Shown here: positions 9,288-41,497 of the stretch, piece after piece | Layout of the letters: the number at the start of each line of letters is the position of its first letter | Numbering within the stretch: the stretch's first letter is position 1 | Source of the DNA: a virus | Direction: 5' to 3' (one strand) | DNA length: 41,497 nt | Virus genome (UHGV): UHGV-0033333 | Notes under the pieces: generated by a model | What the model was told of the DNA's origin: nothing | Database searches by the model: none | The model's input: only the letters and a program-made list of their open reading frames with translations | Position numbers and translations under genes: made by a program

Positions 9288-9316
9288 TTGACATATGGTA
9301 CACCATATGCTATTAT
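9288..9316 (+). promoter_or_regulatory. Consensus sigma-A promoter TTGACA-17-TATTAT with embedded palindrome CATATGGtacaCCATATG (9292-9309)
   Basis: Exact hexamers and spacing read from sequence. The 7-bp inverted repeat in the spacer is a likely regulator site. Confidence 0.5.
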
Positions 9317-35547: not shown

Positions 35548-35827
35548 TTGTCTACCATTTGTCTACCGTAGACAGAAATTCATATAATATAACAGGAAAT
35601 CACAGAACACGAAAACAAACATAAAACACCGATAAATGTTGATTTTAAAGCATTTTTAGGGTACAATAAAAAACCGTAGAATGCATAAAATTAACAAAAA
35701 CCTTTAAATGAAGTACATGGAAACGCTTGAATACTGATGCCGTATTTTAGCGGAATACAGGCATTTCGGACAATTAAATAATGAGGTTTGTCTACAAATT
35801 GTCTACCGTTTTTTCAGCGGTAGACAA
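35548..35827. other. Candidate attP: two clusters of TTGTCTACC integrase-type repeats flanking an AT-rich core
   Basis: TTGTCTACC at 35548-35556, 35559-35567 (with palindrome TGTCTACcGTAGACA), 35788-35796 (TTGTCTACA) and 35799-35807, plus inverted copy CGGTAGACAA at 35818-35827 overlapping the int stop. Confidence 0.45.
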
Positions 35828-37040
35828 TTTTTGCTGTAGCTGCTTCAAAAAGTTCCACTGCCTGGTTCTGCATTTTCTCCGTATTGGTTATGTAACGTTC
35901 GATGGTTGTCTTGATATTCTTATGGCCCAGGCGCTCCATGATTGCCTTAGGAGAAGCTCCGCTTTCTGCCAGAATAGTTCCATGTGTATGTCTCAGACAG
36001 TGTGCATGGAAATTTTCATAACCAAGCTTTTTCTTTATAATCCGGACACAATATTTCATGCTTTCATTATTTAACATTTCTCCATTTTCTTTTGCGATAG
36101 GCCATACTTCCGTATATCCTTCAGGAGCATTCTGATTAGCAGGAAGCCAGTGCAGATAAGATCTCTGGTCCACGTAAGTCTTTGTGTAATATTCTCCATA
36201 ACGTAACCGGTTCATTTTCATAACAGTAAGCTCTGACTTCAATAAGGATTCCAGAGTAGCACCGATTTTGATGGTGCGGAAGGAATCATATTTGGGGTTC
36301 TTGTAATACCATTTCTTATCCAGGTCTTTCTGCAGCTGTCTCTTTACTGAAAGAGTATGATTTTTAAAATCAATGTCGTGCATCAGATCAAGACCAAAAC
36401 ATTCCCCGATCCGCAGTCCGGTATAATAACAGATCATCAGAGGTAGATAGTAGTGCGTGCCATTAAAATGATTACGGATATCCTCCCACTCTTTTCCTAC
36501 ACAGACATATTCCATATGCGCCTTTGTTTCCGGATTAACCGCAACCTTTGGTACTAGGGTGAGTGAGCAGGGATTAGTCTTCAGGTACTGACAGGGATAT
36601 ATGGCGTATTTCAACGCACCGGACAAAATGCCACGGAAGTTAGCCATGCTCTGTGCAGAGAGGTCTTTTTCGTTCTTGAGACTGTCAATCCATTGCTGAA
36701 TGGCAGCAGGCGTAAGTGAGGCAAGCTTATAATGTCCAAGAGCCGGTTTGATATGTAGCTTGATAGCCGATTCATAGGCATCATAGGTATTGTCTGTACA
36801 GTTGGTTTTTACATAGCTCTGCATCCAGAAATCCAGATAATCAGACAGCGACATCTCAGATGGCCGAAACACAGTTCCTGCATTGTCATATTCAGCCTTT
36901 GCTTTAGTTCCTGCAGCAATAGCATCTGCCTTTGTCCGGAAGCCTCCTTTTGAAATAGATTTCCGTTTCCCGTCTACTCTGGCACATTCAAAACTGTATT
37001 CCCATGATTTTCCACGTTTTTTGGTTCTTAATTCGCCCAT
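35814..37040 (-). CDS. int: Tyrosine integrase
   Basis: HCLRHTHGT...LGHKNIKTTIERYIT catalytic region. RBS AAGGAAGGTGA precedes ATG at 37040 (MGELRTKKRGKSWEY...). Confidence 0.85.
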   Translation of the reverse strand: MGELRTKKRGKSWEYSFECARVDGKRKSISKGGFRTKADAIAAGTKAKAEYDNAGTVFRPSEMSLSDYLDFWMQSYVKTNCTDNTYDAYESAIKLHIKPALGHYKLASLTPAAIQQWIDSLKNEKDLSAQSMANFRGILSGALKYAIYPCQYLKTNPCSLTLVPKVAVNPETKAHMEYVCVGKEWEDIRNHFNGTHYYLPLMICYYTGLRIGECFGLDLMHDIDFKNHTLSVKRQLQKDLDKKWYYKNPKYDSFRTIKIGATLESLLKSELTVMKMNRLRYGEYYTKTYVDQRSYLHWLPANQNAPEGYTEVWPIAKENGEMLNNESMKYCVRIIKKKLGYENFHAHCLRHTHGTILAESGASPKAIMERLGHKNIKTTIERYITNTEKMQNQAVELFEAATAKIVYR

Positions 37041-37204
37041 AATATCACCTTCCTTTTTAAAATTGGGTACAAAAATAACAGCCACACAGATGTTCTGGTT
37101 GTGCGTCTGCTCCGAAGATGATACAATAATTCTTGCAAAATGAGCATCTCTTCGGAGATCTGAATCGTCCTGGTGCGCCAACACTGGGGCGATTTTTTAT
37201 AAGT

Positions 37205-37337: not shown

Positions 37338-37758
37338 TTAATCTATGCCATCATTATAAGAAAATATTCTCTGTTTGTCAAATTTTTTTAACCGACCATT
37401 TTCTATTCCATGCTGTAGTTTTCCGGGCGTAATAGTGTGTAGAGTGGCAACGTAGAGATAATCTGCGGCTATGTCAAGCTTTATTCCTATTTGTACATTT
37501 TCACTCATTATCTTAACCAATTCAAAAACTTGTTCCTTTTTCGTTTGGATTCACACCGATATAATCGGGATCTTCAACAATAGAAGACAGAAAAGATAAA
37601 TACGGGAGACATTCAGGGTGTCTTTTCTCAATGTGCTTCTGCAAACCTTCTGACTGATAAATGAAATCATGATTCAAAGGCGTTGGAAGATAATTATTAA
37701 ATTGTGGATTGAATGGAGCGGCTATAAATACTTTTGATTTCATTTTTATTCCCAGCAA
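37338..37758 (-). pseudogene. Two adjacent small ORFs (78 aa and 60 aa) offset by 1 nt: possible frameshifted single gene or recoding site
   Basis: TGA at 37522-37524 is followed by in-line ORF 37338..37520, which starts only at TTG with no RBS. Upstream part contains HIEKRHPE. Confidence 0.25.
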
Positions 37759-38196
37759 TTAGTCTGATAATTTGAGTTGCAAAAGTTTCTGGTGATATCC
37801 AGTCATTCTGGATATCTGTTCAATAGTAAATTCTCTGTATTCCTCAAAGAATGAATCAGGAAGCAGTAATTCCATAGCAAATTTGTTGGCTTCGATTTCC
37901 TTCTTGGAATTTAACAAAAGTGTTTTGTTACGGATAAAATAACAATTTTCCTTCCGGTGCAGGATAGCATGTCCGAGTTCATGAGCCATGACCAGACGCA
38001 TCTCATGTTCCGGAAGATTCTGATTGATAAATATGTAGCGGTGATTTTTCAGGAACATATAACAGCCTTCAAATTGCAGATCACATATCTGGTATAAAAC
38101 ACCAAGCTGATCAGCAATAGCAAAAGGATCTGATGTTCCTGTTTTTCTTTTGTAGTAAGAAACAATCTTCTTGATATTACGATTCAAGTAATTCAC
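37759..38196 (-). CDS. ImmA/IrrE-family metallopeptidase (anti-repressor protease)
   Basis: HELGHAILH (HEXXH) motif; directly downstream of the XRE repressor. Confidence 0.8.
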   Translation of the reverse strand: MNYLNRNIKKIVSYYKRKTGTSDPFAIADQLGVLYQICDLQFEGCYMFLKNHRYIFINQNLPEHEMRLVMAHELGHAILHRKENCYFIRNKTLLLNSKKEIEANKFAMELLLPDSFFEEYREFTIEQISRMTGYHQKLLQLKLSD

Positions 38197-38610
38197 CTAC
38201 TCTTTGTATTTCTTAGGAGTGTACTTTTCTTTGTTAATGATCTTTAATCTCTTTAAAGCAATTTCCAGTTCATCACGGAAGAGCTCTGCAGCTTCCGGAC
38301 TCAATTCCTCACCATTATAACTTGCAGGTCCATCTTCGCCAGAGGTGAGCTTTTCCATGATGTTGTCCAGATCTTTTGAAATATCTTTATTATCTTTTTC
38401 AGATAAACCGTCTGCGTCAATTCCTTTTAATAGGTAATCAGTACTCACATCAAAATAGTTTGCAATTAACAAGAGTTTTTCTGCGCTTGGATTAGGATTC
38501 GATTTCCATTTTGAAATAGTACCCTTTCCAAACCCTAATTCTTTTTCTAAATCGGATTGGTTGATTCCTTTTTTATCACAAAGAGAGATTACTCTGTTGA
38601 ATAAATTCAT
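38197..38610 (-). CDS. XRE-family HTH repressor (ImmR/CI-like)
   Basis: N-terminal HTH (QSDLEKELGFGKGTISKWKSN); acidic linker; divergent from cro. Confidence 0.8.
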   Translation of the reverse strand: MNLFNRVISLCDKKGINQSDLEKELGFGKGTISKWKSNPNPSAEKLLLIANYFDVSTDYLLKGIDADGLSEKDNKDISKDLDNIMEKLTSGEDGPASYNGEELSPEAAELFRDELEIALKRLKIINKEKYTPKKYKE

Positions 38611-38643
38611 ATCAGTCCTTTCTGAAAAAATTCAACAAAAGGC

Positions 38644-38672
38644 TTGACAAATGATGAATATATTCATATAAT
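38644..38672 (+). promoter_or_regulatory. Rightward PR-like promoter TTGACA-17-TATAAT with 14-bp perfect palindromic operator ATGAATATATTCAT (38654-38667) in the spacer
   Basis: Exact consensus hexamers and spacing. Imperfect operator copies TGAATAAATTCA (38686-38697) and TGAATATTTTCA (38789-38800). Confidence 0.55.
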
Positions 38673-38750
38673 CATATCTAACAGATGAATAAATTCAACA
38701 AAAACCTTGTAAGATGAATTATTTCAATTTAAATTTGTTTGGTTACAGAT

Positions 38751-38779
38751 ATAATAGAATATTTTCATCGGAAAGTCAA
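38751..38779 (-). promoter_or_regulatory. Leftward promoter TTGACT-17-TATTAT toward immR, face-to-face with PR
   Basis: AGTCAA at 38774-38779 and ATAATA at 38751-38756 on the + strand; same GAAAGTCAATAT context as cassettes A-C. Confidence 0.45.
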
Positions 38780-38803
38780 TATAAATGTTGAATATTTTCA
38801 TCT

Positions 38804-39022
38804 ATGAAAGGAGGAACGAAGGTGATTTATGACAATATCCGAGCAATCTGCGATAAGAAAAATATTTCTATTAAGCAGGTGGAAAGAGAACTGGGGTTTT
38901 CAAACTCAAGTATTTGCAAATGGAATGAATGTGAGCCGAGTGTTTGGAAGGTGCAGAAAGTAGCAGATTATCTTGGTGTATCTATGGAATATCTGTTATC
39001 AGACCAGAAGGAGGCAAGTTGA
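38804..39022 (+). CDS. Cro-like XRE HTH protein
   Basis: IKQVERELGFSNSSICKWN. Likely real start is GTG 38822 (AAAGGAGG + 7 nt). Confidence 0.65.
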   Translation: MKGGTKVIYDNIRAICDKKNISIKQVERELGFSNSSICKWNECEPSVWKVQKVADYLGVSMEYLLSDQKEAS

Positions 39023-39023
39023 A

Positions 39024-39212
39024 GTGCGAGAATGGATTGTACTGATTATAGCAGTAGTTTCTGTTATCCAATGGATTAAATGGAAAATCACTGCACAGGC
39101 ATTAATTTATTATAACGAGAAAAACCAATACAAACATCCCGGAAAAACAGAAATGGGAGAGTGCATTGGCTTTGTCGTGGAAAACACCATCAAAGATTTA
39201 ATTGGCCGTTGA
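39024..39212 (+). CDS. 62-aa small membrane protein after cro
   Basis: GAAGGAGG lies 9 nt before GTG 39024. N-terminal TM helix WIVLIIAVVSVIQWIKW. Confidence 0.35.
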   Translation: MREWIVLIIAVVSVIQWIKWKITAQALIYYNEKNQYKHPGKTEMGECIGFVVENTIKDLIGR

Positions 39213-39585
39213 CCATCTGAGTAAGAACGGAAGCTGCAATCTGCGATATTACATTCAGAGAAAAAGAACCTACGTTTCCACTGATCTTTTTGACTTTTTC
39301 CCAAACAGTGTCAGAACGCACGCTTTCAAGAAATTGATAGCCAGTGTATGTAATGCGGTACACATCAAGAGCAACGATTGCATCATCTCCGTCATTTCGG
39401 TAACAAACGATGAAACCTGCATCGTCAAGCACGAGTAATGTGTTGGCGATTTCTTCAATGGAAAAATTAATTTTTCCGGGAAGATCAAAAACGCTGATTT
39501 CATTAATTTCCAGATCTGAATTCATAGTGAGATTTTCTTCCAGATAAAGCATAACAGTACGAATGCATTCGGGGTTAAGTTTCAT
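39190..39585 (-). CDS. Hypothetical 131-aa protein (YjcQ-like winged-helix?, tentative)
   Basis: Driven by cassette B promoter; RBS AAAGGAG 6 nt before ATG. Confidence 0.5.
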   Translation of the reverse strand: MKLNPECIRTVMLYLEENLTMNSDLEINEISVFDLPGKINFSIEEIANTLLVLDDAGFIVCYRNDGDDAIVALDVYRITYTGYQFLESVRSDTVWEKVKKISGNVGSFSLNVISQIAASVLTQMVNGQLNL

Positions 39586-39599
39586 TTTGTTCTCCTTTC

Positions 39600-39693
39600 T
39601 TTTATTCAGACATGGCGGTGTCTCGTAATAAAAGAATAGGAGCGTAGTAGCAGAAAGTCAATATTTTTTATCAGACAAGAAGGAGGCGAGCTA
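39600..39693. promoter_or_regulatory. Conserved bidirectional cassette copy B
   Basis: AGACAtggcggTGTCT (39608-39623, covarying stem); -10 TATTCT (39638-39633); -35 TTGACT (39661-39656); + strand RBS GAAGGAGGCGAG. Confidence 0.55.
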
Positions 39694-40050
39694 ATGTTTT
39701 TTCGAAAAAAGAAAACAGAACCTAGCACCAGGCAATACCCACCAGCATTTAATGATGATCCACCATGTTTACATGTCACAACCGACTACGCAGATAATAA
39801 GATTTTTTCCCGAGAGTTACATATCGCTTTATCGGACCGCGACTGGTGTGAATTTGTAAAACAAGATTTTTATCCTCAGTTAATTGAATGGGTTCGTCAT
39901 TTGGAAAATATCGAAATTCCACATAACATTGAAAAATACTACTCAGATACTGGCAGCATTTCGGTGGCTGACCAGATAAAATCAGCCGCCGAAATGGTGG
40001 GAAAAACAGGACTCAAGTGTGTTCCGGATTCTGTAATCCACCAGAAATAA
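39694..40050 (+). CDS. Hypothetical 118-aa protein
   Basis: ATG 7 nt after GGAGGCGAG; 3' end overlaps the convergent gene 40013..40300. Confidence 0.5.
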   Translation: MFFRKKKTEPSTRQYPPAFNDDPPCLHVTTDYADNKIFSRELHIALSDRDWCEFVKQDFYPQLIEWVRHLENIEIPHNIEKYYSDTGSISVADQIKSAAEMVGKTGLKCVPDSVIHQK

Positions 40051-40300
40051 CTTTGAAATTGGGCTTAATATCAGTCTTTTCTAAATCAATAATTCCATAG
40101 CTGTCAAGAAGCCGTAACGTAAGACCTGTTGCTAAAGAGACAGATGTGGTTGCGATTATAGAAGCAAGCTGAGATGAAATAACATTAATATCTTGGGAAA
40201 AATCAATTTGAGAAAGCATGGTCTCGATTTGCTTCGAATTAGAAGAAACCAGAGATAAGGTGTTATCCATAATAAATTGATTGAGTTCTTCAGATGTCAT
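40013..40300 (-). CDS. Hypothetical 95-aa protein
   Basis: Driven by cassette C promoter; 5' UTR carries the GGACAccaccaTGTCC hairpin. Confidence 0.5.
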   Translation of the reverse strand: MTSEELNQFIMDNTLSLVSSNSKQIETMLSQIDFSQDINVISSQLASIIATTSVSLATGLTLRLLDSYGIIDLEKTDIKPNFKVISGGLQNPEHT

Positions 40301-40317
40301 AAATTATCATATTCCTT

Positions 40318-40415
40318 TCGTAATATTCGGACATGGTGGTGTCCTGTAATACAAGAATAGGAGCGGAGGAAAAGAAAGTCAATATTTTTGTTAAAACAGA
40401 AGGAGGCGAGTTGAG
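40318..40415. promoter_or_regulatory. Conserved bidirectional cassette copy C (nearly identical to A)
   Basis: GGACAtggtggTGTCC (40329-40344); -10 TATTCT (40359-40354); -35 TTGACT (40382-40377); RBS GAAGGAGGCGAG. Confidence 0.55.
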
Positions 40416-40619
40416 ATGGAGTACAAGGAATGGGAAAAACAAAGAACTGCCGCACTGGAAGTATTCCGGGAATTTTTAAAAACACTTCCGAAAAAAGGCT
40501 TTACACTGCGGCAGATGGAAATGATCGGAAATGAAGCAAAAAATGAAGTTGAAAATGTCATTACCGATATTAAAGAAAAATTAGTGCTTACTGAAGATCT
40601 GACTGACCTTCTGAAATAG
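40416..40619 (+). CDS. Hypothetical 67-aa protein
   Basis: ATG follows GGAGGCGAGTTGAG; 3' overlap with the convergent minus-strand gene. Confidence 0.5.
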   Translation: MEYKEWEKQRTAALEVFREFLKTLPKKGFTLRQMEMIGNEAKNEVENVITDIKEKLVLTEDLTDLLK

Positions 40620-40773
40620 AATCACGGATTTTCTTCAGAAGTCTGCGATACAAAACAGCAAATTCAAAAGCATTATTTTCAGTAATTGCCTCACCACGAA
40701 GTTGATAGTCGTGAATTGCTGCCTGGATAGCGAGGTCATGAGCACGCTGTTCAATACTGATATCTTTGTACAT
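40588..40773 (-). CDS. Hypothetical 61-aa protein (start MYKDISIEQ...)
   Basis: AAAGGAG lies 8 nt before ATG 40773. The track's 40791 start lacks an RBS. Confidence 0.45.
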   Translation of the reverse strand: MYKDISIEQRAHDLAIQAAIHDYQLRGEAITENNAFEFAVLYRRLLKKIRDSISEGQSDLQ

Positions 40774-40795
40774 AAAAAAATCTCCTTTCATTTTA

Positions 40796-40866
40796 CTCGG
40801 ACATGGCAGTGCCCTGTAAGAAAAAGATAGGAGAATAATAAGTAAAAGTCAACCAGAACATAGCAA
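40796..40866. promoter_or_regulatory. Cassette copy D (diverged): GGACAtggcagTGCCC, -10 TATCTT, -35 TTGACT (40852-40847)
   Basis: Shares ACTCGGACATGGCAGTG with A and AAAAGTCAACCAGA with 35325-35340. Confidence 0.45.
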
Positions 40867-41063
40867 ATTACCTATTTGGTATAGAGAAAGGAGCATAGAG
40901 GGGTGAGAAAACATAAAAGAGTAAATACGATATCAATCTTCCTTTCAGCTCTCTTGTGTGCCCTACTTAGAGCAACCGGAAAGCTGGAAGGAAACTTCGA
41001 ATTTTCTCAGACATATATGCTGCTGTATTTGTGTATCAGAAGTGTTTTAAAACAGGAGAAACA

Positions 41064-41228
41064 ATGACTAATTACATTATCTTGGCCAGTGTTTGGGTAG
41101 TTGCGCTGGTATGTTGGAGAATAATGAAAAAAATAGAACCTGAAATAGCAAGCGCTTATCTGGTATATGTCTTGATTATATGCATATTAGTTACAGCGTT
41201 TGGAGTAAGTTACTTATCTCAGGTTTAA
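41064..41228 (+). CDS. 54-aa two-TM membrane peptide (MTNYIILASVWVVALVCWRIMKK...)
   Basis: RBS AACAGGAGAAACA precedes ATG 41064. Confidence 0.4.
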   Translation: MTNYIILASVWVVALVCWRIMKKIEPEIASAYLVYVLIICILVTAFGVSYLSQV

Positions 41229-41497
41229 TTTGTTCAAGTAAAGCTGTGGCATTATCAAAATCTGAAATTATAATAGCAGAATTAATGTCAATCATAGTTT
41301 TGGCAAGATGATCAGGAGCGTAAGCAAGCGCGAGGAAATAATATTCACCGTAATCTTTTTGAGACGGACTGTCAGCATAGTGAATACATTTTCCTGTGTA
41401 TCTAAGGTACTTCTCAAAAATTGAACGAATGTAGTAAGTGGTATTTTCGAGATGCTTTTGTTCGAGTTCCATACGCTTAAGCTTAAGTTGATAACGA
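41191..41497 (-). CDS. 3' part of the junction-spanning gene (continues from 1..86); internal ATG at 41472
   Basis: Minus frame is open from 41497 to the stop at 41191. Codon phase is continuous with the window-start ORF when the ends are joined. Confidence 0.4.
   Translation of the reverse strand, partial: RYQLKLKRMELEQKHLENTTYYIRSIFEKYLRYTGKCIHYADSPSQKDYGEYYFLALAYAPDHLAKTMIDINSAIIISDFDNATALLEQIKPEISNLLQTL

Follow-up and report, generated by a model that had tools for sequence, protein, structure and literature searches.

The DNA analyzed here, hereafter the window, comprises 41,497 nucleotides and represents the circularly permuted genome of a temperate phage, which carries genes for the large terminase subunit, a portal protein, a major head protein, and an endolysin. 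We focused on the 211-bp spacer that separates a leftward unit of repressor, protease, and integrase genes from a rightward gene for a Cro-like protein. The features of this region are compiled in Table 1. The immA-like and immR genes are codirectional and abut at 38196/38197; cotranscription of the two genes is predicted, as is an anti-repressor role for the immA-like gene product. The start of cro was assigned to the GTG codon at 38822, which is located 7 nt after the AAGGAGG sequence and whose position is aligned in relatives. The ATG at 38804 was discarded as the start codon. The closest relatives of the locus were found among IMG/VR gut viral contigs and on a contig of Blautia ammoniilytica, and more distant ones originated from many Lachnospiraceae. 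A blastn search in distant mode with positions 37700 to 39100 yielded no match in the phage collection, and relatives among cultured phages were identified by protein search only.

Table 1. Genes, predicted promoters, and candidate operators of the immR-cro region (positions refer to the window; operator centers are given relative to the predicted start sites)
Feature	Position	Strand	Remarks
Tyrosine integrase gene	35814-37184	-	Phage_integrase match, E=5.2e-22
Short PBECR3-like ORF	between integrase and immA-like genes	-	leftward block
immA-like metalloprotease gene (predicted anti-repressor)	37759-38196	-	Pfam Peptidase_M78, E=3.4e-17; HELGH motif in translation
immR-like XRE-family repressor gene, 137 aa	38197-38610	-	Pfam HTH_3, E=4.6e-11; PHROG transcriptional regulator/repressor families
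Candidate operator A, TGAATAAATTCA	38598-38609		over immR start codon; center PR -75.5, PL +140.5
Candidate operator B, TGAAAAAATTCA	38623-38634		center PR -50.5, PL +115.5; mirror partner of G
PR, predicted rightward (lytic/cro) promoter, TTGACA(38644-38649)-17-TATAAT(38667-38672)	38644-38672	+	12/12; predicted TSS ~38679
Candidate operator C, perfect 14-bp palindrome ATGAATATATTCAT	38654-38667 (core 38655-38666)		PR spacer; center PR -18.5, PL +83.5
Promoter-like match TTGAAT-16-TATGAT	38698-38671	-	9/12
Candidate operator D, TGAATAAATTCA	38686-38697		between start sites; center PR +12.5, PL +52.5
Candidate operator E, TGAATTATTTCA	38715-38726		between start sites; center PR +41.5, PL +23.5
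Promoter-like match TTTAAA-16-TATAAT	38728-38755	+	10/12
PL, predicted leftward (immR/lysogenic) promoter, TTGACT(38779-38774)-17-TATTAT(38756-38751)	38751-38779	-	10/12; predicted TSS ~38744
Candidate operator F, aGAATATTTTCA, one arm imperfect	38756-38767		PL spacer; center PL -17.5, PR +82.5; mirror of C
Candidate operator G, TGAATATTTTCA	38789-38800		center PL -50.5, PR +115.5; mirror partner of B
cro ribosome-binding site, AAGGAGG	38808-38814	+	sequence; GAGG aligned in relatives
cro-like XRE HTH gene, 66 aa, GTG start	38822-39022	+	Pfam HTH_3/HTH_26; PHROG transcriptional regulator families; start aligned in relatives
DUF2513 gene with own promoter-like site	39190-39585	-	points at cro and immR

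Promoters were called as matches to the sigma-70/sigma-A consensus in AT-rich DNA, and transcription start sites (TSSs) were predicted 7 nt past the -10 element. A preliminary description of this DNA had proposed a rightward promoter, PR, and a leftward promoter, PL, about 100 bp to the right of it. Both elements are present as described, and the predicted start sites, which face each other at a distance of 65 bp, were reproduced. PR adjoins immR yet points rightward, giving a predicted leader of approximately 143 nt to cro, and PL adjoins cro yet points leftward, with a predicted leader of 134 nt to the immR ATG. A scan of positions 38100 to 39300 returned no terminator-like site, so neither of the two leaders contains one. 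Folding of the leaders was modest (z = -1.2 and -2.2), with the pairing arising from inverted operator copies, and an Rfam scan of 38400 to 41497 returned only one subthreshold chance match. Neither result supports a structured RNA element.

The strict pattern TTGAC[AT]-N17-TAT[AT]AT occurs four times on both strands of the 41.5-kb window, compared to 0.04 occurrences expected. PR and PL account for two of them. A more general scan for promoter-like sequences in 38100 to 39300 returned four matches versus 4.8 expected from shuffles. Since these were not enriched and include two other candidates within the spacer, sequence alone does not settle the geometry. A perfect leftward promoter is also present elsewhere in the window, at 37381-37353; it was considered as a conserved Pint and rejected, as it was not found in relatives.

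The spacer is also densely populated with candidate operators. The exact core TGAA-N4-TTCA is found nine times in the window, for which 1.85 occurrences would be expected. Six of them fall within 38598 to 38800, starting at positions 38598, 38623, 38655, 38686, 38715, and 38789, and only three more are located in the remaining 41 kb. Including one near-exact site at 38756, seven candidate operators (A to G) are contained in approximately 200 bp. The palindrome ATGAATATATTCAT (operator C) had previously been placed exactly within the PR spacer. It is indeed located there with 13 of its bases, whereas the -10 element begins with its final T. The same description listed D and G as degenerate half-operators flanking PL. 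Both of them proved to be full TGAA-N4-TTCA cores, and D is positioned between the start sites at PR +12.5. The remaining four sites (A, B, E, and F) had been missed.

The arrangement of the operators is roughly mirror symmetric, with C and F residing in the promoter spacers and B and G being centered at -50.5 of PR and PL, respectively. The two promoters represent imperfect inverted copies of one module, composed of an operator, 6 nt, the -35 element, an operator-holding spacer, and the -10 element. The arms of the inverted repeat span 38623-38637/38786-38800 and 38653-38665/38757-38769, and the center of dyad symmetry is near 38711. The path of the PL transcript to immR crosses sites E, D, C, B, and A. 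Among the seven sites, D is the one that is perfect most frequently in the relatives, and a perfect operator occupies the same position in Bacillus phage BMBtp1. At the position of B, several other specificity types also retain an operator.

Conservation of the promoters was evaluated using 68 related immR-cro loci from IMG/VR and GTDB, which yielded 51 distinct spacers, the one of the window included. Their ImmR and Cro proteins are 38 to 97% and 27 to 97% identical, respectively, and the spacers are 187 to 270 bp long, mostly 210 to 220 bp. It should be noted that these regions are phylogenetically related, so that counts overstate their independence; they span at least nine operator-specificity groups. 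Promoters were counted if they matched at least 10 of 12 consensus positions, and expected numbers were obtained from composition-matched shuffles. A rightward promoter near immR was present in 49 of the 51 regions (2.1 in shuffles), and 37 contained a leftward promoter near cro (1.9 in shuffles). Both promoters of a face-to-face pair reached the threshold in 36 regions, whereas 0.07 would be expected from shuffles. Back-to-back pairs at the same threshold were found in none of the 51 regions. The best rightward promoter was located 68 to 85 nt from the immR start and the best leftward promoter 61 to 89 nt from the cro start, resulting in TSS gaps of 50 to 93 bp with a median of 65 bp. PR had the higher consensus score, which is only a proxy for strength, in 36 of 49 regions, and PL had the higher one in 4. 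In some subgroups PL scores only 8 to 9 of 12, and one subgroup combines a weaker -35 element, TTGCAA, with an extended -10 element, TGTGaTATACT, at the place of PL.

An alignment of 21 of these regions illustrates how promoters and operators behave. The TTGACA-17-TATAAT by immR and the reverse-strand TTGAC[AT]-17-TAtaaT by cro are both fixed. The operators are wholly different between groups, for example, GTAGA-N6-TCTAC, CGCAA-N4-TTGCG, CATGA-N6-TCATG, and GAGAA..TTCTC. The promoters of the window very probably face each other in a layout that is conserved in dozens of relatives, and the comparative evidence supports the geometry proposed in the preliminary description rather than a lambda-like one.

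The same comparison bears on the source of cro transcripts. In principle, cro could be transcribed from the proximal match at 38728-38755 (TSS ~38762), the -10 elements then overlapping in a divergent orientation, and the promoter at 38644 would give rise to a short leader or antisense RNA only. This match reaches 10/12, its TATAAT is perfect, and it would provide cro with a conventional leader of 45 to 60 nt. However, it is unique to the window, being absent already in relative L001, whose ImmR is 97% identical, and its -35 element is unconserved in the alignment. The 12/12 match of PR, on the other hand, lies by immR, where a promoter is kept in 49 of the 51 regions together with operators at fixed positions, and the stretch from 38679 to cro is devoid of terminator-like sites. 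We therefore regard transcription of cro from the proximal match as very improbable.

Coliphage 186 served as a control for the promoter scan. Its annotated pR and pL promoters were recovered, with a predicted gap of 63 bp compared to approximately 62 bp annotated. The same scan predicted back-to-back promoters in Lactobacillus phage phig1e, Listeria phage B054, and Geobacillus phage GBSV1, which argues against a bias towards convergence. Face-to-face promoters were predicted in the Bacillus phages BMBtp1 and BCJA1c and in Ruminococcus gnavus phage phiRgPS_6, which have spacers of 220 to 320 bp and predicted TSS gaps of 97, 118, and 65 bp, respectively. BMBtp1 carries perfect operators at PR +10.5 and PL -48.5. 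Some of the more distant metagenomic ImmR homologues were also back-to-back. As both outcomes were obtained among homologues from cultured phages, the two predicted geometries appear to coexist among homologous repressors, and the face-to-face arrangement appears to be specific to a clade.

The existence of back-to-back homologues raises the question of whether immR might be transcribed in the classical manner from TTGAAT-16-TATGAT (38698-38671, TSS ~38664) beside PR, with the match at 38779-38751 being incidental or minor. This candidate scores 9/12 and is shared by the closest relatives L001, L055, and L081. Besides phig1e, B054, and GBSV1, back-to-back promoters have a precedent in ICEBs1, whose PimmR and Pxis are described as divergent (PMC11318856). 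The -35 element of the candidate in the window, however, is an arm of operator D and is gone in every relative with another operator sequence. Across the 51 regions, a leftward promoter of at least 10/12 near immR was found only once, which is below the 3.0 observed in shuffles. Furthermore, the back-to-back intergenic regions of B054 and GBSV1 are approximately 160 bp long, compared to 211 bp here. Transcription of immR from this site is, in our judgment, quite improbable. We consider it likely that the locus constitutes a lysis/lysogeny switch with convergent promoters, belonging to a siphovirus-like temperate phage whose host is a Blautia-like member of the Lachnospiraceae.

Across the relatives, at least seven operator types could be distinguished: TGAA, GTAGA, CGCAA, TTAGA, CAGAA, CTTAG, and AGAA. 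Site positions were alike in all seven, at approximately -50.5, -19, and +12.5 of PR and at -17.5 and -50.5 of PL. The operator type tracks the recognition helix of ImmR, with GKGTISKWKS being paired with TGAA, GRGSIGKLRN with GTAGA, ARSYISKFKN with CGCAA, and TTATLTSWKQ with CTTAG. A natural swap is provided by the comparison of the window with relatives L004, L007, and L074, in which Cro is 97% identical, whereas the ImmR helices and the operators are different, the L004 type being GTAGA-N6-TCTAC. Since near-identical Cro proteins are accompanied by different ImmR helices and operators, the candidate operators are assigned to ImmR. The change from the window-type to the L004-type sequence occurs at the center of site G and suggests a module exchange at this site.

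Operator F is part of the block TAGAATATTTT, which shows no variation among the 21 aligned relatives, and the PL-region block AAAATATTCTA does not vary across about 30 relatives despite differing ImmR specificities. The latter block is more conserved than a promoter needs and could be a protein-binding site. Its exact core, GAATATTTTC, occurs only three times in the window, twice here (at F and G) and once, at 37360-37369, in the spacer of the leftward promoter at 37381-37353. With regard to the block as a candidate Cro operator, helix 3 of Cro is alike in most of the block-bearing loci, with L051 and L103 as exceptions. In addition, the leftward DUF2513 unit is without a predicted terminator before cro, and PL may therefore not be the sole source of immR transcripts. 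These observations could be accommodated if GTCAA...TAGAATATTTT were no working promoter but served mainly to bind a protein, either Cro or a host factor, and immR were transcribed from further right, for example by read-through from DUF2513, in a PRE-like manner. We consider this improbable. In subgroups without the block, among them the one with the extended -10 element, a leftward pair of -35 and -10 elements is retained at an unchanged distance from cro, and a promoter and a binding site can coexist in the same sequence.

To our knowledge, face-to-face transcriptional interference is a textbook mechanism for which coliphages 186 and P2 provide nearly all of the basis. For 186, Callen et al. 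reportedly found 5.6-fold interference in 2004. As in 186 and P2, the predicted lytic and lysogenic promoters of our phage converge between divergent genes for a repressor and a lytic regulator. The 186 likeness noted in the preliminary description extends to the spacing, the annotated start sites of 186 being approximately 62 bp apart versus 65 bp here. In both phages, repressor sites (candidate sites in our case) cover the lytic promoter and are read through by the lysogenic transcript, and further sites flank the core. The proteins, however, are unrelated. BLASTP did not align ImmR significantly with 186 CI (E=0.07 over 12 residues) and returned no significant alignment of Cro with Apl. The resemblance to 186 is analogous, not homologous. 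Other differences include a protease partner, ImmA, in place of control by Tum or LexA, an XRE-type Cro instead of the Cox/Apl excisionase-repressor, and a Firmicute host. Moreover, an operator is also located inside the predicted lysogenic promoter here, and the operator layout is mirrored. The promoters score 12/12 and 10/12 here compared to 9/12 and 8/12 in 186. The record of 186 (NC_001317.1) describes pL as 'inhibited by convergent pR promoter; activated by CI repression of pR'.

In its gene module, the locus resembles ICEBs1 of Bacillus subtilis, in which an XRE repressor, an M78-family ImmA protease, and an integrase are transcribed together, opposite to the lytic or transfer operon. 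The six sites bound by ImmR in ICEBs1 extend over both promoters, and ImmA cleaves this repressor (PMC8960796); the seven candidate sites predicted here similarly span both promoters. Differences are the convergence of the promoters predicted here, although the layout is arguably not defining for the protein family, the fact that our element is a phage and not an ICE, and the first rightward gene, which encodes a Cro-like HTH protein in place of xis.

Convergent promoters have been proposed before in this setting. For phi5 and phi12, two ImmR/ImmA-type prophages of Clostridium clostridioforme LM41, PhagePromoter predicted a convergent pair, and 186-like interference was suggested (PMC11318856). 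These prophages share with our phage a Lachnospiraceae host and a convergent pair in the repressor-regulator intergenic region. That proposal was a software prediction for two prophages, made without operator analysis, comparative test, or experiment. A Firmicute mobile element in which a repressor gene is convergent with the operon it represses is pCF10 of Enterococcus faecalis, where interference and complementary 5' RNAs from prgQ/prgX contribute to a bistable switch (PMC3181467). It differs in its 223-nt overlap, dedicated antisense RNAs, peptide-pheromone control, the RNPP-family PrgX, and being a plasmid. Among the cultured phages, phig1e (cpg/cng switch), B054, and GBSV1 possess full-length repressor homologues of about 35 to 38% identity, and B054 and GBSV1 also share the protease and integrase context, but their predicted promoters are back-to-back. 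BMBtp1, BCJA1c, and phiRgPS_6 have homologous repressor and protease genes together with predicted face-to-face promoters, although their repressors are only 33 to 41% identical. In the literature searched, we found neither a published account of the face-to-face geometry in these three phages nor an experiment on convergent ImmR/ImmA-type switches.

From the sequence elements, their conservation and fixed positions, and the covariation of operators with the ImmR helix, all of which were returned by the programs used, we infer promoter activity, the assignment of proteins to sites, and interference, leading to the following model. PR would drive cro and the early genes and PL would drive immR-immA, and probably int, the two units overlapping head-on by approximately 65 bp. 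In a lysogen, ImmR bound to C and D would silence the consensus-strength PR. This would relieve the weaker PL of head-on interference by sitting-duck, collision, or occlusion mechanisms, so that ImmR would indirectly sustain its own synthesis. At high ImmR levels, PL would be limited by occupation of site F, the imperfect operator in its spacer, resulting in negative feedback. A second negative feedback could be exerted by bound sites E, D, C, B, and A acting as roadblocks to polymerases from PL. Upon induction, ImmA would cleave ImmR, as it does in ICEBs1, PR would fire and overrun PL, and Cro would be made, locking the lytic state. The complementary 65-nt 5' ends of the two transcripts might provide a further level of control by antisense RNA, as in pCF10 (PMC3181467).

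How transcriptional interference operates and how a short interpromoter distance affects it has been described, and a short gap combined with a stronger interfering promoter favors the sitting-duck mechanism (PMC5001618). Repressor roadblocking at an interfering promoter is discussed in the same work. It is conceivable, though unlikely, that the promoters are real and convergent but interference between them is negligible, regulation being achieved solely by ImmR and Cro occupying the spacer operators. Operators at about -18 in both promoters would be enough to repress each of them directly. The evidence against this explanation is circumstantial: the narrow TSS gap of 50 to 93 bp is kept across very diverged relatives, and PR is systematically nearer to the consensus than PL, a combination that maximizes sitting-duck interference (PMC5001618).

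Given the earlier prediction in the LM41 prophages (PMC11318856), the idea of convergent promoters is itself not new. What is added here is the conservation of the layout, which covers dozens of diverged switches and extends to Bacillus phages, a mirrored arrangement of seven candidate operators at fixed positions, the covariation of operators with ImmR, and the presence of both geometries among homologues. We tentatively propose that a large clade of ImmR/ImmA phages of Firmicutes, ranging from gut Lachnospiraceae to Bacillus, may have independently evolved a 186-like switch from two mirror-image promoter-operator modules. In such a switch, the repressor would sustain itself by silencing the opposing promoter and would be throttled by transcription through five of its own operators.

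If functional, the layout would be widespread in prophages of abundant human gut Firmicutes and would have evolved independently with different proteins. Since homologous repressors elsewhere are predicted to act between back-to-back promoters, this family would be a natural system for studying why and how the geometry of a switch changes. It offers dozens of natural variants with swapped operator specificities, differing promoter gaps, and homologues of the opposite geometry. With these variants, the effect of promoter arrangement on prophage stability and induction could be examined, which bears on the ecology of gut phages and on the building of switches for Clostridia.

Switch geometry was not uniform among the related repressor loci (L numbers; relatives and cultured phages). 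Back-to-back promoters were found at seven loci with homologous repressors (L056, L057, L064, L067, L101, L105, and L112), and the homologous repressors of phig1e (L142), B054 (L146), and GBSV1 (L147) were likewise associated with back-to-back promoters. The spacer spans approximately 160 bp in B054 and GBSV1, whereas it ranges from 190 to 320 bp in the face-to-face clade. Judged from promoter matches, the geometry of the switch appears to have changed within the repressor family.

The predicted leftward immR promoter, PL, contains a short block, TAGAATATTTT, that was unchanged in approximately 30 relatives (loci L001 to L034, L051, L054, L082, and L103), regardless of the type of ImmR operator. 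The block could serve as an operator for Cro, be an ancestral half-site that became frozen, or mark a recombination hot spot. The -35 context of PL, GAAAGTCAATAT, is also common to the repeats located between 39592 and 40852. Each of the three copies is flanked by leftward and rightward small genes and harbors a leftward TTGACT-17-TAT(T/C)(C/T)T match, the hairpin GACATGGnGGTGTC, and the rightward RBS CAGAAGGAGGCGAG. No terminator was predicted between the DUF2513 gene and cro/immR, and this leftward unit could be a source of antisense or read-through transcription, resembling PRE.

Features in and beyond the switch region
Feature	Position	Strand	Remark
DUF2513 gene (PHROG 585)	39190-39585	-	Directly 3' of cro, oriented toward cro and immR
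Block TAGAATATTTT	38755-38765		PL-strand sequence AAAATATTCTA; lies near -22 to -11 relative to PL
Promoter match TTGACA-17-TATAAT (12/12)	37353-37381	-	Perfect consensus, leftward
Promoter match TTGACA-17-TATTAT	9288-9316	+	5' of packaging and structural genes
Intergenic repeat, three copies	39592-39697, 40313-40417, 40783-40852		70-105 bp
PBECR3-like nuclease ORF, then separate 60-aa ORF	37338-37758	-	

The likely start of the integrase gene is approximately 300 nt downstream of the perfect-consensus promoter match, which holds the palindrome AGAATATTTTCT inside its spacer. Three exact copies of the 10-mer GAATATTTTC occur in the window: one in this match and the other two in operators F and G, which are TGAA-N4-TTCA sites of the switch. 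The match may represent a separately regulated int promoter that responds to the same regulator as the switch; its counterpart was sought in the relatives and was not found. The PBECR3-like ORF encodes only 78 aa, compared to the 115 positions of the profile; splitting or decay may have affected this gene. Ahead of the packaging genes, a perfect 18-bp palindrome, CATATGGTACACCATATG, fills the spacer of the rightward match; this match could be a promoter for middle or late expression that carries its own operator.

The switch regions of relatives showed a deletion and a probable exchange. A 31-bp deletion in L012 removes the -35 element of the rightward promoter, PR, and part of the spacer, both of which are retained in the otherwise identical L013. 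L012 may be a prophage without PR that is non-inducible. In L004, L007, and L074, Cro is 97% identical to that of the window and the ImmR helix is different. Exactly at the center of operator G (GAATATTTT, 38789-38800), their own sequence type gives way to that of the window, a switch which suggests that immunity regions are exchanged as modules at a shared operator core.
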